Below, one piece after another: positions 13,701 to 30,810 of a stretch of DNA of 64,000 nucleotides. This stretch comes from Promethearchaeati archaeon. Its GTDB lineage: Archaea; Asgardarchaeota; Heimdallarchaeia; Heimdallarchaeales; Heimdallarchaeaceae. The first letter of the stretch is position 1, and every line of letters starts with the position of its first letter. The stretch spans positions 105,834 through 169,833 of the forward strand of contig JABLTJ010000004.1 in the NCBI GenBank assembly GCA_013166775.1, read 5' to 3'. The notes beneath the pieces were generated by a model. That model was given only the letters and a program-made list of their open reading frames with translations, had not been told where the DNA came from and did not search any database. The position numbers and the translations under genes were made by a program.

Positions 13701-16700
13701 TCTAAAAATCGCTGGACTTTCTTTTCACTCATTTTTAGAAGAAGAGCAATTGTAGATACATCTTCAGTTATAAATGAGAGAATATCCCCGACTCCTGAAT
13801 AAATTAGCTTGCGAACTTGGTTATTATCCAAGCCTATGAATGCAACAGAAGCTCGGTATAGTTGAACTTCTCTGAAGATGTCAAGTTTCACTAAAGCAGG
13901 ACGCGACTCTCTAATTTCTTCCATGCGGGAAATAAAGTCCTGGATTGAGTTTATTCCAATATCATTCAGTTTCTCCAGATAATCTTCCTCTATAGAGGGG
14001 CAAACAGAAAGAGGAATTGCAGAACTTATACGTCTTTCAGCAAGTTCATCAAAAGAGATAAGATCTAATGCATGAAACTCTTGATAAATTGGATTTTGAG
14101 TGATCTGATGTAACTCGTCTTTATTTACTAATGCAAGATCAATTACTGAATTTATCTCATGAAATTCTAATCGTTTCAATTCATCATATGAAAGAAATCC
14201 AATGAATCTTATAGATCCAGAAAGAAGCTCCTTTGCTTTCTTGTATTCTTCTATTGAAAGAATTTCAGAGATACCCATAATGCTTGCAGAATAAAAGAAT
14301 GATTCAATATCGGAAACACCTATGTCTTTCAGATCTTCTATCTTCTTTTCTGACAAGTACTCTGAAGGTCTTATTATATGAGCTTGAGATAAGCGGAAAG
14401 CAACTATATCGGAATAGGTTAATGCATCTTTTATTTCTCTTATTTCTTTTTGAGAATTACCAGTTATCTCAGAAATTTGTTTTACTGGAATTGAAAAGAA
14501 ATCAATTAAAGTATTAACTGAGGATTTACTTAACTTGAGAGCAATTGATCTAGGTAATCCCATAGAAGCAATAGGAATTGCAAGCTCCATGATTAACCTG
14601 TCTAACGAATCATCTTCTAATAAACGAGTATAAAATGGTTGAAGAGCAGAATGTTCTTCAAAATCAATTTCGAAAACATCTCCAATTATTACGTTTTTGT
14701 ATTCTTCTCGTCTTGCTTTTCTAATTCGAGTAAAGAACGGTGTGATTCTTAGAGGAAGCTCCAAAATTGATCGAATTAGGGTTAAATTATAATTCTCTGT
14801 TAGATATTGTTGATCCTTCCCCATTAGGTCTTTTATAACCTTATTATCGGTAATTACATCAAATAATGTCTTATTCTCTATATCTTGAACTACTTTCTTG
14901 AAATAAGATGAATTATAAACAGTAGCAGGGAGATTCGCAAAATAATGAAATGCCTGCATTATAATGATTTTTGAAGAATATGTTGATACAACACGGAACA
15001 GAACAGGATCTGTAAGATCTGCATCAGGAATGAAAAGCAATTGGTAAACATAATTGATGTTATTTTGCTCAAGAATCTCCATAGAAAACTCTGAAATCTC
15101 TGTGAAAATCTTTAATGGTAGTGTTAGATACTTCTGAACTGCAGAGATTTTTTTCCATATTTCTGGATTGGAATAATAGTATTGCTCCTCTGTTGAGTAA
15201 TATAGTTCTTGGATTGTTTGAAAACGCTCAAATTGAAATATTGAATCTCTACTTAATACTCTTTGCTCATGCTTATCAAATAGTTGTGTTTCAAAGGCAA
15301 AAATACCTTTGTTTTCATAGAGAGCTTGAATGCTAGATGTTGTCAAAGTTGTTATAATTTCCTTAACCTCTTCTGGTTGAGCTTTTATTAATTTACTAGT
15401 TTTTTGAGCTGGAGCCATAATGAATTCTGCAATAGTTTGAATTCCATTTTCTCTAAGAATTTCAGTATTGGTAAAGGATATAGATGGTAAGAAATAAACT
15501 GGTAATGAGAAGTAACCAAAGATATCGGATAAATCTAAAGCATTCTTTATGGTTTCAAATCTTTCATCCGCAATTCCTGTCTTTTCCATAAGTGCTTCAG
15601 GTGAGGATAACATGAATCCAAGTAGAGTGGAAATACTAGCTTTTCTTAGTATTTCGATAATCTCTGGATCTAACATATCTGATATATGATTGAGTGGAAG
15701 GTTCAAGATTGCTTTAAAAGATTCAATAACATACCAAGGTAGAGAATCTATTGTCCATTTGTCCTTTGAAGTTGAGAAGTACAGATCCTCAATTGTGACT
15801 ATATTATGTATATCTAATTCTCTTACAATCCTAGGTTCTAAAATTCCAAGTTCTGATAGATCTATTCCAGTATCACTTATTCGTACATTCTTTTGCAGTG
15901 ATCTAGCTTCTTCGATTTCAATACCTAGATACTCAATTAAATCTGAGGGTTGACTAACCAGTAAATCGATAATTTTTGTTATTCCATGATTACGAAGGGT
16001 GTTCAATTGTTGAGTAGATAGAGTAGAAACTAGTATATCATCTATATAACTATCTTCTTCTGTTTCCTCATCTTTTACTGCTCTCTTAATCTCTTGTTCC
16101 CAAGTCACTAAGGTTAATGGAGAACGTAGAAGTTTCCTAAATTTTTCTATCACATTCCAATTAACAAAAGCTGATGAAAATGTGAGAGGGTTTGCAAGAT
16201 AGAAGATTTTGTCTATGGTATCGTATCCAGATAGAATTAAAGAAACAATCTCAGGAGAGGAGAATCTCTCAGACTCTTCAAATTCAAATGAAATTAAGGA
16301 CTCATATTTATTCCCTTTTTTCTCAAAGAAGAAGGTTCCTTGTTTTAGAATTGAAAAATTCTCAAATAGTTGTGTTACATTTTCCTCTTCTTTTCCAAGA
16401 ATGGATGCTAATTCTGCAACAGTAAAATCAAAGATTTGATGGATGGCTATTATTCCATAATTTCTCAATTTATCATAATCATCCAAAGTGAGACCACTAA
16501 TTCTTGATATCGGAAGAGCTAGACTTCGTAGAAACTCATCATACTCGCTAATAAGAACTATTTGTTTATTAAATTCACTCTCTTCATCGATATCTCTTGT
16601 TTTAATTTTATTGTATAAATTCAAAGCTAACTTTCTTTCTTTTGTTGAACTAAGTTCTGACTCAATTATCTCAGGAAGCAAATCTAAAAACTGTCTGATT

Positions 16701-19700
16701 GTTACAATATTTCTTAATTTTAACTTTAGTAATGTATTTTTTAGTTCAGGATGCTCTTTGAACTTACTAGAATATATTTGAGTAAGCTCGATTAATTCAA
16801 GATTAGAAAGTTTGTTCAGACTCTCAAAATTCTTCCAAAAATCTTGAGTTAATGATGGTTTTTCAGTAGGGTAGACACTGAAAAGATCCTGCAAATTAAG
16901 GTTAAATTGATCAAAATAACTAATGAATTTTGGAAAGATTTTCTTAAATATTTCAATATCTTTTCCAAAAGTAGCTCTGTTTTTATTAATTTCTTCTGCT
17001 GAAACAGTCTTCTTGAATTCTTCTATTTTTATTTCCGATAGATTTAGAATTTCTGCTAATTCACTGTTAGACCATAGTGTGAAACGACCTATGCAGTTTA
17101 TACCCACATCATATAACAGATTAGAATTCTTACGAAGAGAGGGAAAAGCAAAAATCAGAGGAGTTCGGAGGAATGTTGAGATTTCTATATATTTTTTCTT
17201 GTTTTCTGATGATAAAGAATAGGCTTCTGGAGGATTATAAAACAGCTCTTCTAAGGTAACAATTCCTTCTGTTTTAAAGAATTCAGGTTCATCAATCCAA
17301 GAGGGTATAGGTACCCCCAGTTTCTTCTTAATCCACTCAATATCTTTTTTACGTAAACCAACTTTACGTAATTGGGGAGAAGGATAAGCTAAGAAAGAAG
17401 AGGTTGTAAAAATTTGAAGAGCAGTCAAGTCTCTTTCAATATCTTGAGGTATGATTTTTATGTGAGAGAGATCTTTATCCTGTTTGGTCTCCCTAATATG
17501 AGATAAGAGTTTATATTTAGATTCTTTAAGTAAGAAATCGCGAAGCGATGCAAATTTCTTGTTATGAATTGAATTTACTGGTAAATAAATTAAATCCAAT
17601 AAAGTTGAGATCTTGTTTGTAGCTAGAATCTTCTTGACTTCTGATTCTTCTTGGTTTAAACTTTCATCTGTTGTAAATTGTAACTTTGATAAAGAAATAG
17701 ACTTCGAAGAAGAAGAAAGGATATCCATATAAGATGCATAGAGTTTTCGTTCAAGTTCTTTGATTACTATTAGTTCATCAAGATTAGTATTCAGAAAATT
17801 CTCGATTGTTTTTATTTTTCTCCTGTGGAAAGCGTTCTTAGTATATGCATCCGTCCAATCAGGAGTCATTTTAGTAATATTTGTTTTAGCAAAATCTGGG
17901 AATTTATCACATAATTGGGAATAAACATTCTGCATATAATTTACTAATATTGCAGTAATTTCTGCTTGATAATTTATAGTAGTAGGTAGTTTAGTTTGAA
18001 AGAGAAACTCCTCGATAGTTGTTTCTTGAGCGATTAAACCCTTAGAATTATCCTTTAGGTAATCAAACGATGGGAATAAAGTCTGTATTTTTAGGTCTGT
18101 TGTTTTAGTCAAGGAAGCTATTAGTTGCTTACCTTCGGAGGAAATTGCAGCACCATTTTTCTTATTCCTATTGAGTAAAAACTGATGTAACAAATCTTCC
18201 CTCATATTTTCAAAAAGCTTCTCTGGTAAACCCGCAACTGATTGAAGTTTATAAAAATCAGTAGCAAAGTAATGATAACTATTTTGTATCCAACGTCTAT
18301 ACAAAGAGTCCTTTAAAGAATCAAATGATTTTCCATTGTCTGAAATAAATCTTTTTTCTATGGTTCTACTCACAAAGATTTTAGGATCAAATCCTGGACT
18401 CATACCTTCCCTATCTAGTTCTGATATTGTTCTCAATTTTATGTTGTAAATATCCTCTTCAGAGAGCGATAGAAGAGTTACAAGTTCTTTTGAAGGGGTA
18501 ATAAGAAAATCTGCAACAGACTCAATTTCTTTTGATTTCAAAGCTGATTGTATTCTTGAAGGACACCATACATTGGCTCCAAAAAGTCTTTTTCCTAAAG
18601 GCATGAAGAGTTTGACTTTTTTCGTTGCTCCATGAGCAAGCGCTGCTGCAATTCGATCTGTTTCCAACCTGAAATCAGTATAGCTTAGATCTTCATCTTC
18701 CAATATTTTTGTTAGATTCTCAACAATTATTGGAGCTGATCTAACAAAACGAGATAATCTTGCATGTTCTCTTCGTTTTCTTTTTGCTCTACTAAGAAAG
18801 GTCTTTAATCTTCTTCCTAATTGCATTAGAGCTAATCTAATTTCTTCCTCAATCTCTGGAACAATAGATACATATTCCTTGCTAGTTTCTGGGAAGGGTA
18901 TTTTTGTACTAACTAATGAAACAGCAATTGCTAATGGATCAGATTGTCTAGTAAGACCATAATCACTCCACCTTATTGAAGAGACAACATGTGTAATAAC
19001 ATCGTTCCCAGCACCAAAAACAAGAGGGATTCGATTAGCATAACGATATATTATCTTATTATCTGTTACTGTCGCACCTTTTACTTGTGATGCTTCAGCT
19101 ACTCCTCCACCATATCCTAATGCTGCTTCAATAACAAATGGATGTCCAGAGTAAGCTTTTGGAGCTCGAGTGATAGCTTCTACGAATTTTGGCTGTAATT
19201 CTTTTTCCAAACCTTTCCTTAATCGGTTTGATCCTAGAGGTGAAAGAGCTGTTCCTCTTGGGGCATCAAACTGGAAAATTCTATCTCTTTTTCTCTTTAC
19301 ATCTTTAGCTTCTTGATATGCTTTCACGAATCCTTCATGAACAATTCTTCGAATCTCATGAGATGTGATATCTTTTGGGGATTTGTTTGGATCTATCTCT
19401 AGGAGCTGGAAGAAATGCTCTGCTATTTCCTCATTCACTCCCATAAATTGTGTGGCTAGAAATTCCTTCAATTTCTTGCTTCTAGTCACTGCTAATTCAG
19501 CTTTAAACTGTGTAATATCACACCCCCAAGGATGAATTTTCACTGGTTGAGGAGGTGGAGGCATATCATCGACAACACTCTCATAGTCCAACTCCTCTGT
19601 TTCTCCTTCCTTGTCACCTGGTAATCTAACTTTGAAGCTTGAGTAAGGAGTAATAATTGCTAACTGTTTGAAATACTCCTTCACACTATTTTTCGCTAAT

Positions 19701-20305
19701 CTCCAAGCACCTGTAAATGTAATTGAAATTTCCAAACCTGGTTCTTCCAAATAATTAGGATCTCCTGGAAGATATTCATGCTGTTCCATAATAATTGGTT
19801 CATTCTTTTCCAGGTTAATCATCAAGTGCATTTCATGGGTTATATCGTCCATGAAATACCTACTACGAATCTTAGCGGGGAGATCTACAGAAGACATTGA
19901 ATAAAGCAAACACATTTTTGCTCCTAAACCGAATCTTCCACGTGTCTGAATAACACCATATTTAGTTCCTGTTAAAACTCTCCCAAATAGATCTGCAATC
20001 TCATTACCAGGAACTCCAACACCATTATCTCTGCATGATAATTGAAGAAAATCTAAATGCTTTTCCAGTTTCTTGTATTGTGTTACATCCAATAGCTCAT
20101 TAATTTCTCTACTGGATAATTTTCTTAAATCAATAGAAATAATTGGACTAGTTCCTCTCTTTTCTGCTGAATCCAAGCCATTTTCAACTAATTCTCTTAT
20201 GCTAGTAAAGACTGCTCTCATAGAATTTCCAAAGCCTGCAATAGCTCTATTCTCATTAAAAAAAGCTGCTGCAGACATCTTCTTTGTGATAGAATTTTCA
20301 GACAC
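7793..20305 (-). CDS. top6B: Giant DNA topoisomerase VI subunit B fused to a ~3500-aa array of HhH-like repeats
   Basis: First ~560 aa carry GHKL motifs (RELVENGLDS, DNGVG, TRGRFGLG), an H2TH region and the transducer (RYANRIPL, KIPFPETSKE). The rest is tandem L..xGI.TI.DL repeats ending in a basic tail. One uninterrupted 4170-aa frame with a GTG start. Confidence 0.93.
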   Translation of the reverse strand: MSENSITKKMSAAAFFNENRAIAGFGNSMRAVFTSIRELVENGLDSAEKRGTSPIISIDLRKLSSREINELLDVTQYKKLEKHLDFLQLSCRDNGVGVPGNEIADLFGRVLTGTKYGVIQTRGRFGLGAKMCLLYSMSSVDLPAKIRSRYFMDDITHEMHLMINLEKNEPIIMEQHEYLPGDPNYLEEPGLEISITFTGAWRLAKNSVKEYFKQLAIITPYSSFKVRLPGDKEGETEELDYESVVDDMPPPPQPVKIHPWGCDITQFKAELAVTRSKKLKEFLATQFMGVNEEIAEHFFQLLEIDPNKSPKDITSHEIRRIVHEGFVKAYQEAKDVKRKRDRIFQFDAPRGTALSPLGSNRLRKGLEKELQPKFVEAITRAPKAYSGHPFVIEAALGYGGGVAEASQVKGATVTDNKIIYRYANRIPLVFGAGNDVITHVVSSIRWSDYGLTRQSDPLAIAVSLVSTKIPFPETSKEYVSIVPEIEEEIRLALMQLGRRLKTFLSRAKRKRREHARLSRFVRSAPIIVENLTKILEDEDLSYTDFRLETDRIAAALAHGATKKVKLFMPLGKRLFGANVWCPSRIQSALKSKEIESVADFLITPSKELVTLLSLSEEDIYNIKLRTISELDREGMSPGFDPKIFVSRTIEKRFISDNGKSFDSLKDSLYRRWIQNSYHYFATDFYKLQSVAGLPEKLFENMREDLLHQFLLNRNKKNGAAISSEGKQLIASLTKTTDLKIQTLFPSFDYLKDNSKGLIAQETTIEEFLFQTKLPTTINYQAEITAILVNYMQNVYSQLCDKFPDFAKTNITKMTPDWTDAYTKNAFHRRKIKTIENFLNTNLDELIVIKELERKLYASYMDILSSSSKSISLSKLQFTTDESLNQEESEVKKILATNKISTLLDLIYLPVNSIHNKKFASLRDFLLKESKYKLLSHIRETKQDKDLSHIKIIPQDIERDLTALQIFTTSSFLAYPSPQLRKVGLRKKDIEWIKKKLGVPIPSWIDEPEFFKTEGIVTLEELFYNPPEAYSLSSENKKKYIEISTFLRTPLIFAFPSLRKNSNLLYDVGINCIGRFTLWSNSELAEILNLSEIKIEEFKKTVSAEEINKNRATFGKDIEIFKKIFPKFISYFDQFNLNLQDLFSVYPTEKPSLTQDFWKNFESLNKLSNLELIELTQIYSSKFKEHPELKNTLLKLKLRNIVTIRQFLDLLPEIIESELSSTKERKLALNLYNKIKTRDIDEESEFNKQIVLISEYDEFLRSLALPISRISGLTLDDYDKLRNYGIIAIHQIFDFTVAELASILGKEEENVTQLFENFSILKQGTFFFEKKGNKYESLISFEFEESERFSSPEIVSLILSGYDTIDKIFYLANPLTFSSAFVNWNVIEKFRKLLRSPLTLVTWEQEIKRAVKDEETEEDSYIDDILVSTLSTQQLNTLRNHGITKIIDLLVSQPSDLIEYLGIEIEEARSLQKNVRISDTGIDLSELGILEPRIVRELDIHNIVTIEDLYFSTSKDKWTIDSLPWYVIESFKAILNLPLNHISDMLDPEIIEILRKASISTLLGFMLSSPEALMEKTGIADERFETIKNALDLSDIFGYFSLPVYFLPSISFTNTEILRENGIQTIAEFIMAPAQKTSKLIKAQPEEVKEIITTLTTSSIQALYENKGIFAFETQLFDKHEQRVLSRDSIFQFERFQTIQELYYSTEEQYYYSNPEIWKKISAVQKYLTLPLKIFTEISEFSMEILEQNNINYVYQLLFIPDADLTDPVLFRVVSTYSSKIIIMQAFHYFANLPATVYNSSYFKKVVQDIENKTLFDVITDNKVIKDLMGKDQQYLTENYNLTLIRSILELPLRITPFFTRIRKARREEYKNVIIGDVFEIDFEEHSALQPFYTRLLEDDSLDRLIMELAIPIASMGLPRSIALKLSKSSVNTLIDFFSIPVKQISEITGNSQKEIREIKDALTYSDIVAFRLSQAHIIRPSEYLSEKKIEDLKDIGVSDIESFFYSASIMGISEILSIEEYKKAKELLSGSIRFIGFLSYDELKRLEFHEINSVIDLALVNKDELHQITQNPIYQEFHALDLISFDELAERRISSAIPLSVCPSIEEDYLEKLNDIGINSIQDFISRMEEIRESRPALVKLDIFREVQLYRASVAFIGLDNNQVRKLIYSGVGDILSFITEDVSTIALLLKMSEKKVQRFLERITPENLMKEVNRKGVKLEEFSVLSKGKIASLLRTGKEYVQDLYSLNYQAYPSISVSGDYMREFLNGCHISVYRIKELSSEDKLRLIGEGILRLIDLFNSSDKDLKSAFEGSVPKEISKIRKGAFTLSKGAQLKLNEPIIQLLKSLEFDPTKKAAEDLFGFIPEALMQLTESDKIVKTSSIAFIEQLVSFLCLNVLSIPGISIPTKSVLWNKGIKHVIELLSLNLSELTGVSKETTSEIRNFKREFELSKKMSETFSQFIDHSLSFPNKAEKQFMKYGLSSALLIIDFIPHPVFELDDLEKSIIRIATSNMFKPISWLTSDLSLSVKQLLSLAQIGGINIISGLLLLSQNEQYQSLYSKTTEFLNSSIIQFSPPDWAIKLEDTKIITDPSILKKLKDEKIIFLDELLSLDSKIVENESLLAEVYPLILSLKSLPLSSVDNLSTKQIDKIKGHGIRNLYQFLLVPTPLLSAITKIPEEQVTRNKTTQDIKLLEQNVKQTGMDLSLFPEISQDTRKILADYGCVSLIQASKLNLDLLPFSNEERNKIVKLTSYLLTPITLIGKTLKFKHTEIKDLLSNSVITYTNLLEIPPKNWSPSLHKLIDNQKEDPNYLVKLFKNIKKQGIGLEKLSLSAKLTTPLLQIGVSTIEHLYFIPIEYIVKNTRLKSNDINALRDKLSYNISYLSTITQESIDFCYDLGLTTIIEHLIFIKKLPKNIQEEILDSLSLIKSIRESGFVEPLSELEVFLQQKGFSSYKALITSPSFKEDEEIYTKFAPYLLANLKYLEVDPKILDKWKKADFTIIADLFFMSPSIVAATTKTKVSDIQNQIDSFKIDNIIQKLDTIAEKIADEFFFLSTADRNFLKSIGIYSLDELAGNSIYDWLVSEKKIQQIRNKTRSALATSILYYPSISEHTLSDIKRDYFETGITTVQELISSSTQAEKNKIIGFMKLFSANKTAVKSDYIPLSQYLENDNPGELFSKKVSVSNVNTVVDLVTVLEQNKDSLSILGHKINQSFQNPVSSLSFLSKSDTENLALKGVFTVGELIIKPGSFWTNLTPASFKEAIITSLTSLSYKKIETDVSKKVQLSKIKIFDAETKKETLKHYSTMDDLIYSLKQENYPISRALGNKIQRRLNTPIQLLLFPNVTIKSWQRLLQSIKTIEDLYLLTNKELSSILSLKQTEVEKLRYSLTEGNIGHHPIIKENKLFSKKDIDILKQKDIKTYVDLFEKKVKLEKVPNYILDKIKIFKQLNLKDFDSTSEFSLSILDLAYLAPSIDKMTMEKKQRDSISTVINFIFSKGLPLSQILNLESKDQKLEMSDSTIEYLLLLEKHKTAIYDQTKSHLHSKISKRFKELVPFLSRSPILLAPTRNSIDQVAKLPYRNIRELLLEDSIKIKKQISETTFLRNLRNISISLLNDLEKELTNLPSELLSGSNISQLESNTIYSIEEAIIFNRQSSAKTSSLWKLTETVCSMVETELLSLPPIRQSKNIQKLVSELKLVNIYDLLLYCKSTTPESDKLSCANLLPKLSSTKVERMLDDEQKRLSSFIRGSELAPFLRKQKIRSFGTLIKHLENTEIADYEPELVELVIALRAPINLFVNQERLISKLEVAGIVQVIDFIVVPDVRKVVKMSLTEQEQTIVQKLQSSLSLLSIKDALVNKSYPVDKIGLFDKNTKKLLKISGYTTIAHLKASEELIASTSRLNKLQISRIQKLLETPIYYLTDMIKINAQSVFLLHSKNINNLWDLFATLVQQLSKIITLPVKDLRSLYASLNPESLKQAEKDQVEIRKTLPHITEGNIAQLKGSSITTLQALLMPDTEMKNSTSLKDPNVKKLIGILEQPIGTLEIKPEVIKQIKQLGITTIKDFVVYPAAQLDEKTDLSYMAIKSLKSRLPPKKVKVIKKTSTSKPVTKKATPKKAGSTSVKPKTSVTTKSADRKSAKARQTTLLDMTKSNKNTTTVKKSSNTQKKEGN
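8040..18560 (-). repeat. Protein-level tandem repeat of ~55-60-aa helical units (RadA/Rad51 N-terminal or RNAP alpha-CTD-like HhH)
   Basis: Examples: LRNYGIIAIHQIFDFTVAELASILG, LRNHGITKIIDLLVSQPSDLIEYLGI, LRENGIQTIAEFIMAP, IKQLGITTIKDFVVYPAAQL. No exact DNA repeat seen; boundaries approximate. Confidence 0.8.
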
Positions 20306-20474: not shown

Positions 20475-23400
20475 TTACGATTTCCTGAATTTAGGTCCAG
20501 TTCTATAAAGAACAACTGACGTAACTACGAAACCAATTGTAACTAAGAATAAAGAAGCAAAAGCACCTATGGTACGGTTTGCATCTGCATTACTGATTTC
20601 ATCTAGGAAATTCACCAGAAGGTATTCATAGAACTTAGAAGTTGCTCTGTGAACATCTTCTCCCCAAAAGAGAGTTCCCATGTTACCTGTTAATCCAGGA
20701 TTAGTTGTGTGCCATGTTCTGTATCTATCACTTTCAGCTAAAATATCAGGATCTATAATCCATTCATCTCTAACAGCGTCATAATAACCATATAACGTTG
20801 CATTAAGAAATGCATAAGCTTCTGAAAATCCTTCCACTCCTGTACAGTACTGTACTCTATCTTCTCTTAGAATAACACTTCCAGTGACAGGCTCTGCTCT
20901 CATATTTTGCATATGGAAAGGATCTCTGGAAAATCCAGGGAGAGAGTGCGTAAGCTCAAAATCACTAGGGCGGAAATCAAGATCATACATTCTATTCCAT
21001 CTTCCTACGTGTATGAAACTAGAGTTCAGAAAGTTGGAAGTTATCATCCAATAAATATCTGTCATTGCTAATTGTCTGAGCGGTACAGTAGCTTGAGCAG
21101 TATAAACTAGAACATCTTGATCATAGAAGATAGCAGTATCTGTCAGAGAAGAATACGCAAATGGTCTAAAGAAGAATTCACTCCATTGTTGTCGTAAACC
21201 TTTTTCAGCATAAGGATAAACAGCAAAATTGTCGTAAGTTTCGTTAAATATTAATTCTGATTCTATAAGTGTCCAATCATTAAATTGAATCTTTGAATCT
21301 TGTCTCCAACACTCAACGAATGCATGCAACTCATCTCGTTCAAGTTCTTCAAAAGTGCCACCAACCCCTAACTCTAAATGGACAAGACCTTCAGAACCAT
21401 CAGCAAGGTAAATATCATCTAGATCAGCAAAAATACCATATGCTGAACCTAAATGGTCAGTTCCATCAAATCTGTGTAGTTCTGTTAGGGTTGCAGGTGC
21501 AGTTGTACTTACAATTGTGAATCCATAATCACCTTGTGTAAGATAAGCTCTTGCTGTACCTTCATCAACATAGAGATTGTTGAAATAAGTCTCTGCTGGA
21601 TCGTAGGAGAATTGATCTAATTCTGTGAGAATACCATCAAAATCAACACTAAAAGTAAGTAATCCTTCTATTTGATCTAAAACATAAACAGTACTACCTT
21701 TAGCTTTGATATCAATAACGTTTTTGAGATTTGGAAAATCAGCTGCATTATAGTGTAACACATCACCTAAATAACCTGTAGCTTGCTCAATTTCTACAAC
21801 ATTGATTCCATCTGTACCTAGTGCTATATATGCATGTCTTCGATTATCGTTAACATCAATTGCAATAGCAGTACCGTTTAATGCTTTGGTCTCTATAGTT
21901 GTACTTATTGCTCCTTCTGAACCAATTGTATCGCTTATTCTAGCATATGTTATTCCATATACACCGTTAGCGATATACAGAGCATCAAATGGAAGACCTT
22001 CTCCCATGGAAGAATAATCTATATCTCGCATGTCAGAGTCGCCAAAATTACTCCATTGATCTACTTCATATATTGAGGCTGGATTTGTTGCATTCAACAC
22101 TTCTAATCCTCTTGCTCCTTCAACAGCATATACATATCCATCAACTACTGCAAAACCTAATATTTGGCCATCAGATCCAAAGGCTTGTTCTGTAGTTGTA
22201 ACATAATCACCATATTGACCAATAGCCATGAACAATGGGTGAGTCATATTAACAATCTTAATATCTGTACCTCCTTCAAGAACATAAGCTAAATCATCTT
22301 CCACAATGACATCTGATGATTGAGAGTTTTCATAGTATGGGATGTTTGCAATCCCCAGAATTTTTCCGACATCTTGAACATCATATGTACCTAATTGCTC
22401 AGCGTAGAAAAGATCTTCAGTCCAATCAATACTATCACTTGTGAGGGTTTGATTTATAATGAATGGGAATCTTCGATTTCCAAGTAAAGGATCCTCAATA
22501 CCTAAGATCCATTCAAGAGCTGTTCTTTTGCATACGTAAGAAATCTTGTTTTCATATAGCCAGTCAACAGAAGGCCTACCTAATAGATATTGCAAATAAG
22601 CAGCAAAAGATTGTGCTAATTCTCTTTCATATACTGTATCTATATCATAAATATCTGCGAGAAGTTGTTCCACATCAACAATTAGATCGTTTGCATCATA
22701 ATCCAATCCTTTCACTAAATCAATGAAGAATTTAGCTGAACCTGACTCTCCTTTTAATATAGAATAATCATGACCATTATATTGTGCATCATACAAGATT
22801 TTATAGCTTGTGGCTTGGTCAAAATCAAGATCTGGGTATGCAGGTCGAACACTTAACCAATTATGAGGTAAATAAATACCCAAATCTAATAATCCTTCTT
22901 CCTCTGCATAGGTTCGATTAAGAACTGCATAGGCTAGTTCACTATCAGAATATACAACAGGATCACCCTTGAAATTTAAGAGTTCTTTCTGAAGAAGGAA
23001 GGCTGCAACATAAGCTTGAAAACCATATTCTGTTCCATTACCAAACTCATTAATATAATAAGGCCACATATAATTAAAATTCAAAACTGCTTCATCACCT
23101 GTTAAGGTTGAGGCTGTTGCGTTGAAAAGATATTGCTTTCTATAGGCATATACTATATAATCTCCTTCTATATCATATTCTAGAATTGTTTTGTTTATTA
23201 TAATATCAAAGATAAGATCACCTTGAACGAAGTAATAAGCAATTGGGTTACCATAATCAAGAAAACCTGCACGATCACTTACATTGAAGAACTCAAAGAA
23301 TGCTTGATCATAGAATAGTGAATCATTTTCCCAGCCACCTGTATACATCCACTCTGAATTCGCTCCTGAATCATCAAAGGGATCAAAATCATCTTCTGTT

Positions 23401-23546
23401 AATTTCCCAAAAATATTTAATCTTTCATTTATGTCCTCAATTTTATTCACAGAGCTTTGTGGGAGAAGAAGTCCGATTGTAACTGCTGAACCCACGAAAA
23501 TAGTTATAATTAATATTCCTAAAGCTGTCCGAAATTCTGCTCGCAT
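20475..23546 (-). CDS. CD36/LIMP-2/SR-BI-like two-TM membrane protein with inserted LVIVD-repeat beta-propeller
   Basis: N- and C-terminal TM helices; CD36-like motifs FFEFFNVS, KRTALEWILGIEDPLL, AEPVTG..REDRVQY and TLFWGE; central LVIVD repeats (GYVYAVEGARGLEVLNATNP, AYIALGTDGINVV, IYLADGSEGLV). Confidence 0.7.
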   Translation of the reverse strand: MRAEFRTALGILIITIFVGSAVTIGLLLPQSSVNKIEDINERLNIFGKLTEDDFDPFDDSGANSEWMYTGGWENDSLFYDQAFFEFFNVSDRAGFLDYGNPIAYYFVQGDLIFDIIINKTILEYDIEGDYIVYAYRKQYLFNATASTLTGDEAVLNFNYMWPYYINEFGNGTEYGFQAYVAAFLLQKELLNFKGDPVVYSDSELAYAVLNRTYAEEEGLLDLGIYLPHNWLSVRPAYPDLDFDQATSYKILYDAQYNGHDYSILKGESGSAKFFIDLVKGLDYDANDLIVDVEQLLADIYDIDTVYERELAQSFAAYLQYLLGRPSVDWLYENKISYVCKRTALEWILGIEDPLLGNRRFPFIINQTLTSDSIDWTEDLFYAEQLGTYDVQDVGKILGIANIPYYENSQSSDVIVEDDLAYVLEGGTDIKIVNMTHPLFMAIGQYGDYVTTTEQAFGSDGQILGFAVVDGYVYAVEGARGLEVLNATNPASIYEVDQWSNFGDSDMRDIDYSSMGEGLPFDALYIANGVYGITYARISDTIGSEGAISTTIETKALNGTAIAIDVNDNRRHAYIALGTDGINVVEIEQATGYLGDVLHYNAADFPNLKNVIDIKAKGSTVYVLDQIEGLLTFSVDFDGILTELDQFSYDPAETYFNNLYVDEGTARAYLTQGDYGFTIVSTTAPATLTELHRFDGTDHLGSAYGIFADLDDIYLADGSEGLVHLELGVGGTFEELERDELHAFVECWRQDSKIQFNDWTLIESELIFNETYDNFAVYPYAEKGLRQQWSEFFFRPFAYSSLTDTAIFYDQDVLVYTAQATVPLRQLAMTDIYWMITSNFLNSSFIHVGRWNRMYDLDFRPSDFELTHSLPGFSRDPFHMQNMRAEPVTGSVILREDRVQYCTGVEGFSEAYAFLNATLYGYYDAVRDEWIIDPDILAESDRYRTWHTTNPGLTGNMGTLFWGEDVHRATSKFYEYLLVNFLDEISNADANRTIGAFASLFLVTIGFVVTSVVLYRTGPKFRKS

Positions 23547-23723
23547 AATGAATCCTCATAAATTTAATTGTTAAAGTGCCGTCTCAACATATATATATAA
23601 AGGTAATGACCACAGCATTACATTACAGACGGTTTAAAGGAAAAAATGATAGAGCAATTATAAATCTATCTCTGTGGTTTTGTGATGGAAAAATAAAGGA
23701 AGAGTTCGAAGATTGTTGGAAAC

Positions 23724-25025
23724 TTATTCTTTTTTATCTTCTTTTAATATTCGTTGAATCTTGTAGGTATCATGAAGCCAAATATCTTCTAATTTTGCTG
23801 TATCAAGATATCCTACAACTTCATTTTCTTCATTTAGCAACTCAATAATTACTTCAGATAGAATTCCATACCTATTCAACACTTGCTTTGGTATCTCTAA
23901 ATACGATAAAATTCCTCTAATAATAGCGCCGTTATTTCTGCGTTTTTGAATCGAAAAAACAACATCAAGATTTGTATATCTTTTTCTTATTTCATGATAA
24001 TCCTCAGCTGAGAGACCCTCAGGTCCAGATTGAATAATAATGTAACCTCGAGTAGGTTTTTCCTTAATATCATAACTTTCTAGAATCCCTTTTTGATCAA
24101 TAATTCCTGATAAGAGAGGATTATTATCATATATATCCAAAGAAAGAAGATTGCACAATCCTTTTGCATTATTGAAAGTTTTTGCAAAACTTCCAAAATC
24201 TGTATGGTAAAATTCAGAAGAATTTTGGGTTCCTATCATGAAATCTACTAATAGATTAGCTTCTCTGTGATACATTTTCTCCTTGAGAATATCAAATGGG
24301 ATATCATTTGGATTGTTCTTTACTATTTTTGATTCATCCACAAGTATGAAGGGTAAGCTTTCAGTAAAATCTTTCTTCATCAAATAGTGAATAAAGGATA
24401 AAACTGAAATAGAATCTCTAATGATCTCATCAGTTTTTTCCACTTCAGCTGAATCTTGTATGAACATAGGGAGAGTCAAAAATAAGACAATTTGGATATC
24501 TTTTTCTTTCAGTATCTCTGAAATTTTGTAAATTGCTCCAAGACTAAAAGCATCATTATCCAAAACAAGGAAGATAAAAGACACGTCTCTGAATATTCTT
24601 TCTATATAACTTGAAATATTCATTTTGTTTGATTCAAACCATTTAATTCCTCTTGAAAATGTTTGTTTATTGATTGGAGTTTCAGGTAGTTCTAGTGTAG
24701 GTATTTTCAAGTTGATCATTTCAGAGTCTGATTTACTGGCTAACAATAATGATTCAGGGAAACTGCTTTTAATTCGGTTCTTTATCACTGTGAGTATGGA
24801 ACATCCCCTCTTCCCTGAGAAAATAAAACCAATTGATTTTGTTTTCTCTTCTCCTTCCAGATAAAGAGTATTTGATTTATCACAACCGATCAAAACAGAA
24901 TCAGTTTGAAGACTGTCACTAATGATGTTTTCATGATAGAATTGATATAGTCCATTATACTTCTTAGGAACATCAATACCCACTTTTTTTCTTCTCCTTC
25001 CTAAAATAGATTTCATTCTAGACAT
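23724..25025 (-). CDS. Degenerate tubulin/FtsZ-superfamily protein (probable pseudo-GTPase)
   Basis: Colinear with 26524..27666 (FSGKRGCSI, LTLP, LVDESK, RGYIII, IRGILS) but the GGGTGS signature is replaced by DNDAFSLG. Confidence 0.65.
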   Translation of the reverse strand: MSRMKSILGRRRKKVGIDVPKKYNGLYQFYHENIISDSLQTDSVLIGCDKSNTLYLEGEEKTKSIGFIFSGKRGCSILTVIKNRIKSSFPESLLLASKSDSEMINLKIPTLELPETPINKQTFSRGIKWFESNKMNISSYIERIFRDVSFIFLVLDNDAFSLGAIYKISEILKEKDIQIVLFLTLPMFIQDSAEVEKTDEIIRDSISVLSFIHYLMKKDFTESLPFILVDESKIVKNNPNDIPFDILKEKMYHREANLLVDFMIGTQNSSEFYHTDFGSFAKTFNNAKGLCNLLSLDIYDNNPLLSGIIDQKGILESYDIKEKPTRGYIIIQSGPEGLSAEDYHEIRKRYTNLDVVFSIQKRRNNGAIIRGILSYLEIPKQVLNRYGILSEVIIELLNEENEVVGYLDTAKLEDIWLHDTYKIQRILKEDKKE

Positions 25026-25147
25026 TGTTTCTTCAAATACAGATAGTCCTCGTTATTTTTAAGACTTTTCGACTAAAGATACATAGGAGTATTTTAATGA
25101 ATCAATACGAAATTGTTAAAAGTAAGCGCACGGTATAGAAACTTGTT

Positions 25148-26521
25148 ATGGAGTCGAATCTCACTAAACCAACAGAGGTCAAAGCTAAGATTATTCAACC
25201 TGACAAAGTTGAACTTCCAAAATTTGAATTTGAAGATATGTTAATTGAGCATTATAAAAAATATCCAAGAACGGCAGGGATGATAGAAAATCCAAGGTAC
25301 TTGGAAGCGTTGCAGAATCCTTTCAAGAAATTCTATCTTGTGCCCTTAGCTCTTTTTAGTTTAAAGATGAATACGATTCTTTCATTAAAGTGGAAGGATT
25401 ATCTTAAATTATGGTTATACATAGTGATTATGTCAATACCTACATTTATAATGATATATTTTCCGTTTGTGGGAAAAACAGATCCCCTTACTGGAAACAG
25501 GGTGGTCGTAGATGTAACTGTATCAATATACACGCCTATCCTTATAGCTGTTCTACTATCGTTATTCTATCTAAAATTCACACATGATGGTTTTCTAGGT
25601 TTAGTTTTGGAAAAAAGAGTGGAGTGGATAGAAGAGCCAGTAAGGAAGTATTATTCCAAATTTTATGATAGAAAAATACCTAAAAATCCCTTGATAATCT
25701 TACTAGCATTAGGAACGGGATTAGCAGTTAATATTCCATTAATATTATCAACTCCGAGTATTTCTCTGTTTCCAGAAAATGTTCCATTATCACAAACATT
25801 TGGAATAATTTCTTGCATATTAAGCCCTATTTGGTTTTACATATTTTATGTTGAAACCTATTACTTAATCCAAAATACAAGGTTATATTCAAAGATTCTT
25901 GATTCAATAAAAGAAAAAATCGAAGTTTATCTTAATGAATACGGCACACTACTAACAAGAGAAAACTATGATATCATATGGGCTTTGGGTGATAAATGGA
26001 GCAAAGGTCGTTCAATAAGGCAAATAGAAAATATACCTGTTTCAGGTATCTTATCTGCCTTGGTAATTACAATTGCTATGATGATGGGAAGCATCAACGC
26101 TATCATATATGGTATTGTAGGCAGGATGCCAGAGATAGGATTTAGTCTAGGAAAATTACTGGATAGCTCTGCACCTTGGACAGTAATTGTGATTGTAATT
26201 TCAGCTTTGCTCGCAATAATTCTGTTTTTAGTAGTCTTCCTACCTTTGAATTCACTTAGAAAGAAGTTAAAGAAATTTAAGATTAAAGCTCTAATAGAAC
26301 TAGATAATTACATTTTCGCGAATGTAGTAGAATTTGAAACTAGATATGCAGAGGAAGCGAGAGAGGAATCAGTAACAATGTTTCAATTGAGAGAATATAT
26401 TGCAGGTATGAGAACATTCCCGATTTCAACAAATAAGATCTTTAGAACCATTGTAGCAATAGTTATTTGGATTGTGAATATTCAAAAAATCTTTAGAGCA
26501 GTCACACAAACAGGGGTATAA
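25148..26521 (+). CDS. multi-pass membrane protein
   Basis: About 6-7 hydrophobic segments; ends 2 bp before the tubulin/FtsZ-like gene. Confidence 0.8.
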   Translation: MESNLTKPTEVKAKIIQPDKVELPKFEFEDMLIEHYKKYPRTAGMIENPRYLEALQNPFKKFYLVPLALFSLKMNTILSLKWKDYLKLWLYIVIMSIPTFIMIYFPFVGKTDPLTGNRVVVDVTVSIYTPILIAVLLSLFYLKFTHDGFLGLVLEKRVEWIEEPVRKYYSKFYDRKIPKNPLIILLALGTGLAVNIPLILSTPSISLFPENVPLSQTFGIISCILSPIWFYIFYVETYYLIQNTRLYSKILDSIKEKIEVYLNEYGTLLTRENYDIIWALGDKWSKGRSIRQIENIPVSGILSALVITIAMMMGSINAIIYGIVGRMPEIGFSLGKLLDSSAPWTVIVIVISALLAIILFLVVFLPLNSLRKKLKKFKIKALIELDNYIFANVVEFETRYAEEAREESVTMFQLREYIAGMRTFPISTNKIFRTIVAIVIWIVNIQKIFRAVTQTGV

Positions 26522-26523
26522 CA

Positions 26524-27666
26524 ATGTCTTGGTTAAAAAGAAAATTATTCAAAAAGAAAATCTCAATCGCAGTAATCGGAATAGGAAATGCGGGTTGTAA
26601 GATAGGTGATGAAATTATTCATCAGCTCAAGGAGAGCAATATCAATGTAAAATCTTTAGCAATTAATTATACAGATAATTTTGAACCAAAAATAAAGCAT
26701 TTTGCTGAAAATTTCTGGTTTGGAAGCCAAGATAATCCTTCTTCTAATAGTAATCTGGAGGATGCATGGAATGAAATACAAAACAAAGAACTTAATCTAA
26801 AGAACAAGCTAGAAGACGTTGTATTTTACAAGAAAGGAGATAGAAAATCTGAAGATGATTTAGCTCTACATCTTATTGTGGGAAGTGGAGGAGGAACAGG
26901 AAGTGCAGGAACAATGATAGCTAGTAATCTAATATTAGATATAACAGGTGACGCTCCTACAATCATCTACATTGTTCCTGAGAAAGATGAAGCTTCACTA
27001 ATTCAGTATAATGCTGCAACCGCACTACATTTTCTAGGGTTCAGCGCAAAGGGTCCTCAATCTCCGATTCTTCTATTTGATAATGAGAAACTAATGAAGA
27101 TTCTCAAAGATGAGAAAATTGATGAGATTCTAAATATCTCCAACAATATTTTAGCTGAAATATTAACTACGACAATATTAGCAGCTTTACAGGAGAGTAT
27201 TCACCAAGAATATAATGCAGATTTGAATGACTTCTTCTCCTCCTTTACTAAAGAAGCAAGAGGATTAGGTGTAATTGTCTCTGTAGATAAGGAATTTGAA
27301 ACTCTAGAGAAGGCTCAAAATGTTCGATTTTCTGATATTTTTTTCAACGAGCTAGATGAAAGTTCAAGTTTATCAGCTGATGTTACTAGAGCAAAAAGAG
27401 GATATTTAACTATAAATATGCCTACCACTTATCAATCAACATTTGAGACTAGGAAGATTGTAAAACGATTTGAGAAAGGATCTATCAAAGTAGCATTAAA
27501 TTCTATTGAAGAACCAGTTCTCACAATAAGAGGAGTTCTTACAGGTATTCATCCAGATTATGTAGATAGATTCTGGGAAATTCTAGAAAAAGGCAGAGAT
27601 GGTCGAAATGAAATTATAACTAAAGAAGAGAAAATTAGACAATCCCATATAGATTTGAAACATTAA
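26524..27666 (+). CDS. tubulin/FtsZ/CetZ-superfamily GTPase
   Basis: T1 IGIGNAGCKI, signature GSGGGTGSAG, IVPEKDE, LFDNEK, T7-like NADLND. Confidence 0.9.
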   Translation: MSWLKRKLFKKKISIAVIGIGNAGCKIGDEIIHQLKESNINVKSLAINYTDNFEPKIKHFAENFWFGSQDNPSSNSNLEDAWNEIQNKELNLKNKLEDVVFYKKGDRKSEDDLALHLIVGSGGGTGSAGTMIASNLILDITGDAPTIIYIVPEKDEASLIQYNAATALHFLGFSAKGPQSPILLFDNEKLMKILKDEKIDEILNISNNILAEILTTTILAALQESIHQEYNADLNDFFSSFTKEARGLGVIVSVDKEFETLEKAQNVRFSDIFFNELDESSSLSADVTRAKRGYLTINMPTTYQSTFETRKIVKRFEKGSIKVALNSIEEPVLTIRGVLTGIHPDYVDRFWEILEKGRDGRNEIITKEEKIRQSHIDLKH

Positions 27667-27762: not shown

Positions 27763-30700
27763 GTGAGTAAAATGACAAAACCTTCTGTTAATATTGAAAG
27801 TAAACTAAAAAGTAGAATTGAGATCACTCGAGTTTTTAATTTAATTCCTTGGGTAAAGCTAAAGCGAAAATTCAAAGGAGATGTTAAGGAAGATAACATT
27901 ACAAGATACCTTTACTCAACTGATGCTAGTATATACAAAGTTAAACCTTTAGCAGTTGTACAACCAAAAGATGTGAAAGATGTTCAAAAAGTTATAAAAT
28001 TCTGTGCTGAGAATAGAATACCTCTTCACGCAAGAGGAGCAGGAAGTGGAGTAGCAGGACAAGCGCTCGGAGCAGGGATAGTTATAGATTTCACTAGATT
28101 TATGAACAAAATATACGAGATAAATCCAGAAGAGGATTATTTCATAGCTGGACCAGGTCTGAAGGGTTCAACTTTGCAAAGAAAGCTTGATGTTTACAAT
28201 AAATATATTCCACCTGATCCAAGCAGTTTTGATTATGCAACGCTAGGAGGAATGATAGCAACCAATGCTTCTGGAGCACATTCTGTTATGCATGGAGATT
28301 TCGATAAGTGGGTAGAGGAGTTAGAAGTAGTTCTTCCTAATGGTGAGATAATTACAATTAAAGAATATGAGATGGAAAGTGACGAATTTAAATCCATACT
28401 CAAAGCCGATACAGCAGAAGCAGCGATTTATAAGAAACTTATTAAAATTTGGAAAGAAAAGAAAGATTTGATTTTTGAATCTTATCCTCATCTTCCACAC
28501 AATAACACTGGATATGAATTGAGAAATACGATAAAAAATGGCAAAATCAATCTAGTAAGAATGATAGCTGGATCGGAAGGGACATTGGGTCTTATAACAA
28601 AATTAAAAATGAGAATAACAACAAAACCAACCTACAAAGTTCTGGCATTAGCTTTGTTCGATGATATTAAAAAAGCAGGAAAATCTATACAATTCATTCT
28701 TGAGCAACAGAAAGCAGCAATTGAGTTGTTAGGCAAGAAACTAATAGGCATGACAAGAGAAAGATATCCTTCAATTGATGCGAAATTGCCTAAAGAATTG
28801 GATACAATGCTGCTTATAGAGTTTGAAGGCGAAGACCTCGACGAACTCAAAACATTAGCTGCTAATACTGAAGAGATTTTGGTAAGAAAAGAAAAACTTG
28901 CTTTCAGTTATCGAGCATCAGATGATCCTAAGGAACAAGAAGAGCTTTGGGAAGCAAGAAAATCAGCAGTACCTTTGTTATATAAGATAAAAGGGGAAAG
29001 AAAAATAATTGCACTCTTTGAAGATGCAGTTGTTCCAACAGATTATTTAGGAGATTATGTGGCCGATTTACAGAAAATCTGTGACGATTTAGAAATCGAA
29101 CTACTGGCTTATGGCCATGCTGGAAAAGGATTGTTACATAATCGACCTCTCATAAATATGAAAGATGCTGAAGATATAAGAAAAATGGAGATATTAGCAG
29201 AGAAGAGCTTTGAATTAGTTCAAAGATATGGAGGAGTAGTAAGCGGAGAACATTCTGATGGAAGAGTAAGAGCTAAATTCATAAGAAGACAATATGGAGA
29301 TGAATTTTTCAATCTCCTGCACGAAGTGCGATCTACTTTTGATCCTTACAGAATTTTCAATCCAGATAACAAAATAACTGATAATGAAAATGTGTTGATG
29401 GAGGATTTTAGATATGGAGCTGATTATTCAACTATCAAACCAGATACTTTGCTAAGCTGGGAAGAAGATGAGTTCAATACAACAATCGAAACATGTTTTG
29501 GATGTGGAAAATGTGGTATTGGTACTACTCATCTAGTTATGTGTCCAGTGTATAAAGGAAAGCATGAAGAGTTTGTTCTTCCAAGAGCTAAGAATAACAT
29601 GATGAGAGGGTATCTTGAAGGAGAATATGGCTATGATGAACTAATGAATCATGAACTCTTCGAACACATAATCTATAATTGCATAGGATGCCAAAATTGT
29701 TCTTTTGAATGTCCAAGTGAAGTCGATACAGGTAAAGTAATGGTTGAAATGAAATCCCAATATATGGATTATCATAGACCAAAAATTTGGAATTTCTTTC
29801 CAAGATCTATCTATCCAAGAGAAGCATATAAGCTATTTAGAAGATCTGCACATCAAACACACCAATATATTAGAAATAAAACACTAGCAAATATTGGATT
29901 CATAGGAAAAATGGCATCGCTTTTTGCGCCTATATCAGGATGGGCAACCAGCTTTATAGGAACGAGATTTGGTATGGATTTAGCAGTTGGAATATCCTAC
30001 AAACGTAAAATGCCTAAGTTCACAAACAAGACTTTTCTCAAGTGGTGGAAAAAACATAAGAAATCAGAAGAATATCTCAAAGAAGGAAAGAGGAAAGTTG
30101 TCTATTACCACGGATGTTCTGCTAATGCTATTACTCCTGATGTTGGTATAGCAACAGTAGAATTGATGGAAAAACTAGATGTCTCTGTTGACGTTTGTGA
30201 CCAGAAATGTTGTGGCAGTCCAGCATTTTCCTATGGAGTGAAAGATGTCTATTCTAAATATGCACAATTTAACGTAGATGAACTATACAAATATGTTCAG
30301 GATGGTTATGACATAATTACAAGTTGTACAAGCTGTGCATTAGCTCTAAAAGTCGAATTCGAAGAAATGATAGATGATTCAAGGACAGAAAAAATAGCAG
30401 AACACACATACTTGACAACAGAATTTGTAAATAAATTAATGGAAGAAGGAGAGGTAGATTTAGAATTCGGAGCAATAAACGCAAATGTCGCTTATCACAC
30501 TTCTTGTCATTTGAGAGCTCAAAGAGATATTACATCTGTATCATATGAACTATTGCAAAAAATCCCTGATTTAGTTACTGAAAAAGTAGTTGATACATGC
30601 TGTGGTATATCAGGAAGCTGGGGAATGAAGAAAGAAAATTATGATGCATCAATGAAAATTGGTGAACCCATGTTTGATACAATTTCAAAAGAAAACATAG

Positions 30701-30810
30701 ATTTTGCCTTAACAGATTGTCCCACTTGTGCCATGCAAATTGAACATGGAACCAAAAAGGACGTTTCCCATCCAGTAATTCTTCTGAACAAGTCTGTTGA
30801 AAAAAAATAA
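27763..30810 (+). CDS. FAD-linked oxidoreductase with Fe-S and CCG domains (GlcD/Dld-GlcF/GlpC-type fusion)
   Basis: YSTDASIY, RGAGSG, PDPSS, GSEGTLG, SGEHSDG; CxxCxxC..CP clusters; two CCG motifs. Confidence 0.9.
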   Translation: MSKMTKPSVNIESKLKSRIEITRVFNLIPWVKLKRKFKGDVKEDNITRYLYSTDASIYKVKPLAVVQPKDVKDVQKVIKFCAENRIPLHARGAGSGVAGQALGAGIVIDFTRFMNKIYEINPEEDYFIAGPGLKGSTLQRKLDVYNKYIPPDPSSFDYATLGGMIATNASGAHSVMHGDFDKWVEELEVVLPNGEIITIKEYEMESDEFKSILKADTAEAAIYKKLIKIWKEKKDLIFESYPHLPHNNTGYELRNTIKNGKINLVRMIAGSEGTLGLITKLKMRITTKPTYKVLALALFDDIKKAGKSIQFILEQQKAAIELLGKKLIGMTRERYPSIDAKLPKELDTMLLIEFEGEDLDELKTLAANTEEILVRKEKLAFSYRASDDPKEQEELWEARKSAVPLLYKIKGERKIIALFEDAVVPTDYLGDYVADLQKICDDLEIELLAYGHAGKGLLHNRPLINMKDAEDIRKMEILAEKSFELVQRYGGVVSGEHSDGRVRAKFIRRQYGDEFFNLLHEVRSTFDPYRIFNPDNKITDNENVLMEDFRYGADYSTIKPDTLLSWEEDEFNTTIETCFGCGKCGIGTTHLVMCPVYKGKHEEFVLPRAKNNMMRGYLEGEYGYDELMNHELFEHIIYNCIGCQNCSFECPSEVDTGKVMVEMKSQYMDYHRPKIWNFFPRSIYPREAYKLFRRSAHQTHQYIRNKTLANIGFIGKMASLFAPISGWATSFIGTRFGMDLAVGISYKRKMPKFTNKTFLKWWKKHKKSEEYLKEGKRKVVYYHGCSANAITPDVGIATVELMEKLDVSVDVCDQKCCGSPAFSYGVKDVYSKYAQFNVDELYKYVQDGYDIITSCTSCALALKVEFEEMIDDSRTEKIAEHTYLTTEFVNKLMEEGEVDLEFGAINANVAYHTSCHLRAQRDITSVSYELLQKIPDLVTEKVVDTCCGISGSWGMKKENYDASMKIGEPMFDTISKENIDFALTDCPTCAMQIEHGTKKDVSHPVILLNKSVEKK

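Follow-up and report, generated by a model that had tools for sequence, protein, structure and literature searches.

The stretch of DNA considered here (the window) covers 64,000 nucleotides of contig JABLTJ010000004.1 (assembly GCA_013166775.1, positions 105,834 to 169,833 of the forward strand) from a Promethearchaeati archaeon of the family Heimdallarchaeaceae, and on its minus strand, at 20475-23546, it encodes a putative surface receptor related to CD36 and LIMP-2 and interrupted by a beta-propeller. The G+C content of the window is 31-37%. Its source habitat is marine sediment: three marine-sediment DNA runs of one study contain the stretch, two of them being possibly its source, and no RNA sequencing data containing it were found among the listed sequencing runs. 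According to the list of open reading frames (ORFs) and the translation, the gene is a single uninterrupted ORF and a complete coding sequence of 1023 amino acids plus stop. Its start is backed by the orthologues, 27 of which have N termini that align with its own. A putative promoter and ribosome-binding region (23551-23602, minus strand), read by eye from the sequence only, has two elements: a GAGG that precedes the ATG by 8 nt and, about 45-55 nt before the ATG, a TATA-like run of alternating A and T.

The initial annotation of this gene, made from the letters of the sequence, had placed an ectodomain between terminal transmembrane helices. A Kyte-Doolittle scan indeed picked out residues 8-30 and 993-1015, at the two ends of the protein, as its only hydrophobic segments; nothing in between scored above 0.99 at a threshold of 1.6, and AlphaFold modelled long helices at both ends. 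The N-terminal helix (residues ~8-30, 23457-23525; peak 2.49, helix 3-46 in both models) lies behind a seven-residue tail with two arginines, and the C-terminal one (residues ~993-1015, 20502-20570; peak 2.39, helix 970-1016) precedes a basic tail (R, K, R, K). Each aligns with the corresponding transmembrane helix of the canonical CD36 proteins of Asgard archaea, that is, those matching the Pfam CD36 profile PF01130. One transmembrane helix per end, short basic tails and the rest of the chain predicted outside the cell correspond to the hairpin topology of the CD36 family. The ~960 residues between the helices are acidic (16% D+E, 5.5% K+R) and carry 14 N-x-S/T sequons, of which N88 (in the FFEFFNVSD strand), N170 and N365 are kept in 28 of 28 aligned orthologues. 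Only three cysteines occur in the whole protein (339, 746 and 901), none of them at the aligned positions of the metazoan disulfides.

The likeness of this ectodomain to CD36 and LIMP-2 had been proposed from a series of short motifs, all of which are present in the 1023-residue translation in the order of CD36: FFEFFNVSD (83-91), RKQYLFN (from 136), KRTALEWILGIEDPLL (340-355), WSEFFFRP (788-795), SLPGF (868-872), the run H...MRAEPVTG...RVQY (878-900) and TLFWGE (958-963). Profile-profile comparison bears this likeness out. It was performed with hhalign against two alignments, one of 13 canonical CD36-family proteins from other Asgard genomes and one of 22 metazoan LIMP-2, SR-B1, CD36, croquemort and peste proteins, and yielded three non-overlapping segments that follow the same order in both targets. 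The first, residues 53-158, matches LIMP-2 40-137 in the metazoan alignment with P 3.6e-6 to 8.7e-6 and the canonical Asgard proteins with P 5e-5. The second, residues 335-398, matches LIMP-2 164-229 (P 1.2e-4 to 7e-4) and canonical Asgard 580-692 (P 3e-5); the third, residues 870-969, matches LIMP-2 354-428 (P 3.9e-5), and the third block matches canonical Asgard 715-916 with P 6.8e-7. The canonical Asgard alignments extend further than the metazoan ones and take in both transmembrane helices. In a column-shuffle control, with 40 shuffles per segment, 0 of 40 reached the observed score (shuffled maximum 20-23, observed 34-49).

Three blocks homologous to CD36 can thus be delimited. The first (residues 47-160, 23067-23408) contains the first barrel strands with the FFEFFNVSD, RKQYLFN and VLNFN motifs, its strands at 109-141 being modelled with a predicted local distance difference test score (pLDDT) of ~80-89. 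The second (residues 335-405, 22332-22544) carries the hinge motif followed by a hairpin (LG-x-x-D-V...I-L-G-I-A-N). The third (residues 742-972, 20631-21323) includes CW, FFFRP, G871, H878, EPVTG, RVQY and TLFWGE, the last of which corresponds to the last barrel strand; this block is delimited by hhalign and by the two-chain fold described below, and its first ~120 residues are poorly modelled. A full-length comparison with the canonical Asgard proteins runs through residues 742-860, pairing C-W with V-W and FFFRP with DLLRP. Identity to LIMP-2 in the alignable blocks is ~17-22%. In the block alignments, the metazoan-invariant G355, H363, P371 and Q384 of LIMP-2 stand opposite G871, H878, P886 and Q899 with matched spacing, and G871 and H878 are also invariant within the propeller-bearing family. 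This register does not agree with one motif assignment made earlier, that of SLPGF as the counterpart of SxPHF in CD36: SLPGF aligns instead with a 'G-M-x-P' turn glycine ~8 residues before the conserved histidine (G871 = LIMP-2 G355).

Pfam profiles give a colinear signal in the orthologues. PF01130 was matched by 14 of 28 orthologues at E<=1, one of which passes the gathering cut-off (27.3 against 26.5 bits), and residues 109-222 fall on profile positions 78-183 and residues 874-904 on 365-395. The window protein is filed here as a divergent relative (a sister subfamily) and not as a Pfam-defined CD36 member, the Pfam threshold being an operational one.

Structure searches with the whole-protein model against the PDB, by Foldseek and VIA-wide, returned lists filled by propellers in both cases, and for this reason the N-terminal half (residues 1-410) was folded alone (pLDDT 70.2). 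In the Foldseek comparison that had been suggested, 10 of the top 24 rows were LIMP-2 or CD36 chains, but with E 0.24 or worse, and no row reached E<=0.001. Against 48,161 chains, LIMP-2 and CD36 were the only top structural matches of this half. The shape search of the ESM-Atlas returned one family row only, for a cluster of archaeal proteins of which 94% carry PF01130 (TM-score 0.51 by query, 301 residues aligned). The sequence-feature search of the same resource gave no usable match for the N-terminal part; for the C-terminal part the nearest rows were below 0.9. One of those rows, a CD36 cluster from Thermoplasmatota at 0.87, counts as no more than a lead. A search of PDB sequences found just a weak Kelch-like repeat match in the propeller with the single sequence, and nothing with the family profile.

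The two flanks of the propeller (residues 47-405 and 742-973) were also folded together as two chains. The score was 0.73 (runs 0.84, 0.73 and 0.71) against a best control of 0.00; the mark used for this score is reached by 58 of 80 solved complexes and by 2 of 110 mismatched pairs. Between runs, at least 54% of contacts are the same; the pLDDT of the partner goes down to 44. In the model the first strand (75-87) lies against the last one (957-972), and the invariant stretch 156-177 is found at the interface of the halves. The docking may reflect the memory of the CD36 fold held by the model, which would itself be a likeness; the two-chain model supports the likeness and a single discontinuous domain, and no more. 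With the sequence matches and the modest structural scores combined, homology of the window protein to the CD36 family appears very likely.

The inserted LVIVD beta-propeller that had been recognised in the sequence is well supported. Residues ~406-741 (336 residues, 21324-22331) are modelled by AlphaFold as a confident seven-bladed propeller with four-stranded blades, and the LVIVD profile PF08309 is matched by 26 of 28 orthologues (best 3.7e-13). The repeats of the window protein itself do not score at the PF08309 threshold of 20.2 bits, and the PF08309 scan of its own genome does not list the locus, so that its LVIVD membership is one by orthology. The propeller is spliced into the hairpin ~60 residues after the hinge motif, directly behind the part aligned with LIMP-2 ~215-229. 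It is the least conserved region in the family, with 4% invariant columns and 30% identity between distant members, and its closest paralogue in the own genome is just 28% identical (E 2e-4). The genome is otherwise rich in LVIVD-repeat proteins, with 57 repeat matches in ~10 ORFs on eight contigs, one of which (C65) bears two neighbouring LVIVD ORFs of 1193 and 1155 amino acids.

The second addition is an expanded, all-helical apex region (residues 161-334, ~175 residues; 22545-23066), located between the N-terminal block and the hinge block at the site of the CD36 three-helix bundle. Its eight helices reach a pLDDT of up to 95, and no other region of the protein is as conserved (20% invariant columns, 46-66% identity between distant members); W161, Y163, H228, W230 and R234 are among its invariant residues. 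A 2023 survey of eukaryotic class B scavenger receptor (SR-B) proteins found every lineage-specific expansion to be helical and to fall in the same place, the alpha4/alpha5 apex, which lies between motifs M4 and M6 (PMC10715195). The non-apex insertion site of the propeller and its lowest conservation are weak hints against the propeller acting as a ligand-binding head.

With identity and architecture judged jointly, the gene probably codes for a type-III membrane protein (N-in, C-in) at the surface of this Heimdallarchaeaceae archaeon, with a predicted ectodomain of ~960 residues composed of a very divergent CD36/SR-B domain and two lineage-specific additions, the conserved helical apex and the nested LVIVD-type propeller; the flanks of the propeller are predicted to close into one barrel, in which the first and last strands pair beside the membrane. 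The overall reading of the initial annotation, a two-helix archaeal CD36/LIMP-2-like ectodomain interrupted by an LVIVD-type propeller, is therefore retained, but without the equivalence of SLPGF and SxPHF.

The homologue search returned 41 proteins of ~1000 amino acids with 40-86% identity. All but one of the named sources are metagenome-assembled genomes of Heimdallarchaeaceae or Heimdallarchaeota, the remaining one being a partial record labelled Thorarchaeota, and the NCBI names of these proteins are only 'LVIVD repeat-containing protein' or 'hypothetical protein'. The propeller-bearing form is present in 29 of 30 genomes of the GTDB family to which the window belongs, mostly in one copy per genome, and in none of the 369 other Asgard genomes (399 in all), where one propeller-only match was found. 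Canonical PF01130 genes, with E down to 4e-71, occur in 28 of the 399 Asgard genomes and in 11 of 85 genera. They belong to sister families of the same order and class (loci L021-L025 in the sister families of the same order) and to another Asgard family (L004-L019), and are essentially absent from the window's own family. The canonical Asgard proteins are 607-1368 amino acids long, and their Pfam matches are split by an insertion of ~400 amino acids or more at profile positions ~150-180. One of them directly matches a LIMP-2-like protein of brine shrimp (E 3.6e-10); a word-based homologue search from one canonical Asgard protein gave just 4 matches.

A tree was built from the three concatenated blocks (281 columns) with 13 propeller-family, 13 canonical Asgard and 22 metazoan rows, leaving out 15 near-duplicate propeller-family rows. 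Four clans were obtained. In the phylogenetic comparison with eukaryotic CD36 that had been suggested, the canonical Asgard proteins stand apart from Metazoa (support 88/80 and 97/91). The tree did not decide the placement of the propeller family, which sits on a branch of ~3.5 substitutions per site joining the node between Metazoa and the canonical Asgard proteins. Forcing it together with the canonical proteins of the same order carried no cost (log-likelihood +0.17, approximately unbiased (AU) test p 0.53), and the sequences are compatible with descent of the propeller family from a canonical gene of the Heimdall order with strong acceleration. With metazoan rows as its only eukaryotic ones, this tree gives no verdict on the age of the archaeal CD36 genes relative to eukaryotes or on the direction of transfer.

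The gene order around the locus is kept in orthologues of 40-52% identity and comprises a tubulin-like gene, two unknowns, the CD36-like gene and a giant topoisomerase VI-B gene. The latter lies directly downstream (7793-20305, minus strand) and encodes a topoisomerase VI subunit B of 4170 amino acids, with the GHKL and transducer domains within the first ~520 residues (transducer E 5e-54). The remaining ~3600 extra residues give weak matches of the helix-hairpin-helix type (RAD51D_N, HHH_5 and RNA_pol_A_CTD), and tandem repeats are absent from the DNA. In two other genomes the same position is held by orthologues of 4170 and 4341 amino acids. The topoisomerase VI-B gene of the window is followed by a gene for Topo VI-A/Spo11 (6381-7790, minus strand). 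Upstream, a conserved cluster (23724-27666) encodes a 433-residue protein with no Pfam match (23724-25025, minus strand), a divergently oriented unknown of 457 residues (25148-26521, plus strand) and a 380-residue tubulin/FtsZ-like protein (26524-27666, plus strand), whose 32.5 bits are just below the Pfam cut-off of 33. This trio also flanks the CD36-like gene at two orthologous loci (L027 and L028), there together with a pyruvate kinase gene that is missing at the window locus. Further on, at 27763-30810 (plus strand), a 1015-residue fusion of an FAD-linked oxidase (FAD_binding_4 and FAD-oxidase_C) with a 4Fe-4S dicluster and two cysteine-rich CCG domains has the architecture of a glycolate/D-lactate-dehydrogenase-like enzyme.

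Among known systems, the vertebrate class B scavenger receptors (LIMP-2/SCARB2, PDB 4F7B, 4Q4B and 4TW0; CD36, 5LGD; SR-B1; PF01130) have the same two terminal transmembrane helices, short cytoplasmic tails and large ectodomain, which is glycosylated in vertebrates and sequon-rich here. Common to both are the FFNV(S/T) sequon strand, the Y-x-F...S strand, the hinge (R/H)T(A/V)xE(W/L)(I/L)xGxxDP(L/I)L, the TG-x-D-x hairpin, the G...H...(E/N)PxTG...RxQxN block and a last strand W/Y-x-x-E before the second transmembrane helix. The window protein differs from them in its ~17-22% identity in the alignable blocks, in its failure to reach the Pfam threshold, in the lack of the disulfide cysteines and of SxPHF, in the apex of ~175 residues and the 336-residue propeller placed after LIMP-2 ~229, and in its archaeal host. 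The canonical Asgard CD36 proteins, which belong to the same phylum, share its topology and block order, yield the best profile-profile P values in the middle block (3e-5) and in the C-terminal one (6.8e-7), and likewise carry a large lineage-specific addition, but they match PF01130 strongly, have a single insertion at the apex and bear no propeller.

Eukaryotic SR-B proteins with apex expansions (Dictyostelium LmpA and those of Phytophthora, Tetrahymena and Aurelia; PMC10715195) possess extra helices at the same alpha4/alpha5 site as residues 161-334. In contrast to them, the window protein uses a second site, filled with a whole beta-propeller, and its apex varies less than any other region instead of more. 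The LVIVD-repeat surface proteins (PF08309) have the same seven four-stranded blades but occur as free-standing or tandem modules, whereas here the propeller is a nested insert. The 2023 SR-B survey describes the family as pan-eukaryotic and links its beginnings to the early phagosome; prokaryotes are not mentioned in it (PMC10715195). In the literature on CD36, PF01130 or IPR002159 in Asgard or other archaea, including the supplements of a 2023 Heimdallarchaeia paper and a 2026 structural-clustering preprint, no description was found, the coverage being limited and no proof of absence. What is new is a propeller nested at a non-apex site and an enlarged, conserved apex in a known kind of protein, and this in a domain of life for which the searchable literature does not describe that kind.

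CD36 handles fatty acids, SR-B1 cholesteryl esters, LIMP-2 lipids and glucocerebrosidase, and SNMP1 pheromones; in all four a tunnel in the ectodomain delivers hydrophobic ligands to the membrane. Several eukaryotic members of the family also act as receptors of particles or pathogens. The members characterised so far are all known to handle ligands that are hydrophobic or particles that bear lipid. By analogy, the window protein may tentatively be given a function in lipid transfer. At the membrane-distal end, where the conserved aromatic-rich apex would form the entrance, it would capture a hydrophobic ligand; candidates are fatty acids, isoprenoid lipids, quinones and lipid-bearing particles. 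The ligand would then move through the interior of the barrel, either towards the outer face of the cell membrane or away from it, and the variable propeller might add an accessory surface on which a carrier, a glycan or a structure of a partner cell could dock. Of acyl-CoA enzymes, the genome has those of the acyl-CoA synthetase type and single genes for an acyl-CoA dehydrogenase and a 3-hydroxyacyl-CoA dehydrogenase, a set that lends weak, circumstantial support to a lipid role.

Several observations weigh against the CD36 identity of the protein or against its proposed lipid role. Neither Pfam CD36 nor LVIVD matches the window protein even at E<=10, and the Pfam CD36 scan of the spliced flanks that had been recommended, run here on the two flanks separately, yielded no relevant match either. 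A PF01130 profile scan of the own genome (89% complete) gave no match at E<=1, and an exhaustive hmmsearch of the N-half profile over 1.84 billion representative proteins recovered its own family alone, with no propeller-less form and no canonical CD36. On their own, residues 742-860 have no significant profile match, and the model of residues 756-841 has a pLDDT of ~30. In the propeller family conservation is missing at the SxPHF position (~850-857), and the metazoan disulfide cysteines (invariant C274, C312, C318 and C329 in LIMP-2 numbering) are absent from the window protein; as the canonical Asgard members likewise have no invariant cysteine, these disulfides are a metazoan rather than a family-wide feature. 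As for function, the neighbouring genes (topoisomerase VI, the tubulin-like gene and the unknowns) offer no hint, and the set of beta-oxidation genes is minimal.

The same fold could also do a different job. The CD36-like barrel would then be a membrane-anchored stalk, and the protein an adhesin or recognition receptor acting via the propeller and/or the apex, with no passage of lipid; glycans, S-layer components, partner cells or particles are candidate targets. LVIVD propellers are common in the surface proteins of this genome, as the 57 repeat matches in ~10 ORFs indicate, the ectodomain is sequon-rich and acidic, as expected of an exposed surface protein, and the propeller differs from orthologue to orthologue, a common trait of exposed recognition surfaces. 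Several eukaryotic CD36 members are particle or pathogen receptors as well (PMC10715195). However, the most conserved residues are found in the apex and at the predicted interface of the barrel halves and not in the propeller. A handling of hydrophobic ligands or lipid-bearing particles by the characterised family members likewise speaks against such a role. A purely adhesive or recognition function is the main rival of lipid transfer, and a somewhat less likely one.

On a further alternative, the CD36 likeness is real but the gene is no ancestral signature protein shared by Asgard archaea and eukaryotes. Archaea might have gained CD36-family genes by horizontal transfer from eukaryotes (or among archaea), the propeller family being a fast-evolving offshoot, or this family may be an old paralogue unrelated to the origin of eukaryotes. 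The patchy occurrence of canonical PF01130 in Asgard archaea (28/399 genomes, 11/85 genera) and its presence in Thermoplasmatota clusters are in line with this, and the branch of ~3.5 substitutions per site leaves no recoverable vertical signal for the propeller family. The canonical Asgard clan, however, is separate from Metazoa (88/80, 97/91), a grouping of the propeller family with canonical proteins of the same order is not rejected (AU p 0.53), and the complementary distribution of the propeller and canonical forms fits replacement by descent; an origin of this non-ancestral kind is considered unlikely. Finally, it is highly improbable that the flanks are an unrelated archaeal surface domain sharing short CD36 motifs by chance or convergence, an explanation to which the missing direct Pfam match, the Foldseek E of 0.24 or worse and the ~120 unmatched residues (742-860) would be congenial, but which is at odds with profile-profile matches in three segments that keep the same order in each of two independent CD36 alignments (0/40 shuffles per segment reaching the scores), with the two-helix topology shared with the CD36 family, with LIMP-2 and CD36 as the sole top structural matches among 48,161 chains, with nearest Atlas models that are CD36-family, and with first and last strands predicted to pair as in that family.

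In eukaryotes, CD36, SR-B1 and LIMP-2 have central roles in taking up lipids, in lysosome biology and in the recognition of particles. An archaeal CD36 relative present throughout a family offers a testable prokaryotic model of the tunnel fold in the absence of cholesterol and lipoproteins, and a case of a whole propeller nested in a CD36 domain at a site unused in eukaryotes. Archaeal relatives of CD36 are also material for asking whether the receptor family predates eukaryotes or was exchanged with them. It is conceivable, though at present quite improbable, that CD36-type receptors arose in the Asgard lineage, or were already present there, before eukaryotes, and that Heimdallarchaeaceae keep a remodelled version, a lipid tunnel with a conserved new apex and a propeller platform for docking, for the uptake or exchange of lipids or lipid-bearing particles at the cell surface. 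If this were true, the archaeal proteins would represent a prokaryotic forerunner of scavenger and phagocytic receptor function.

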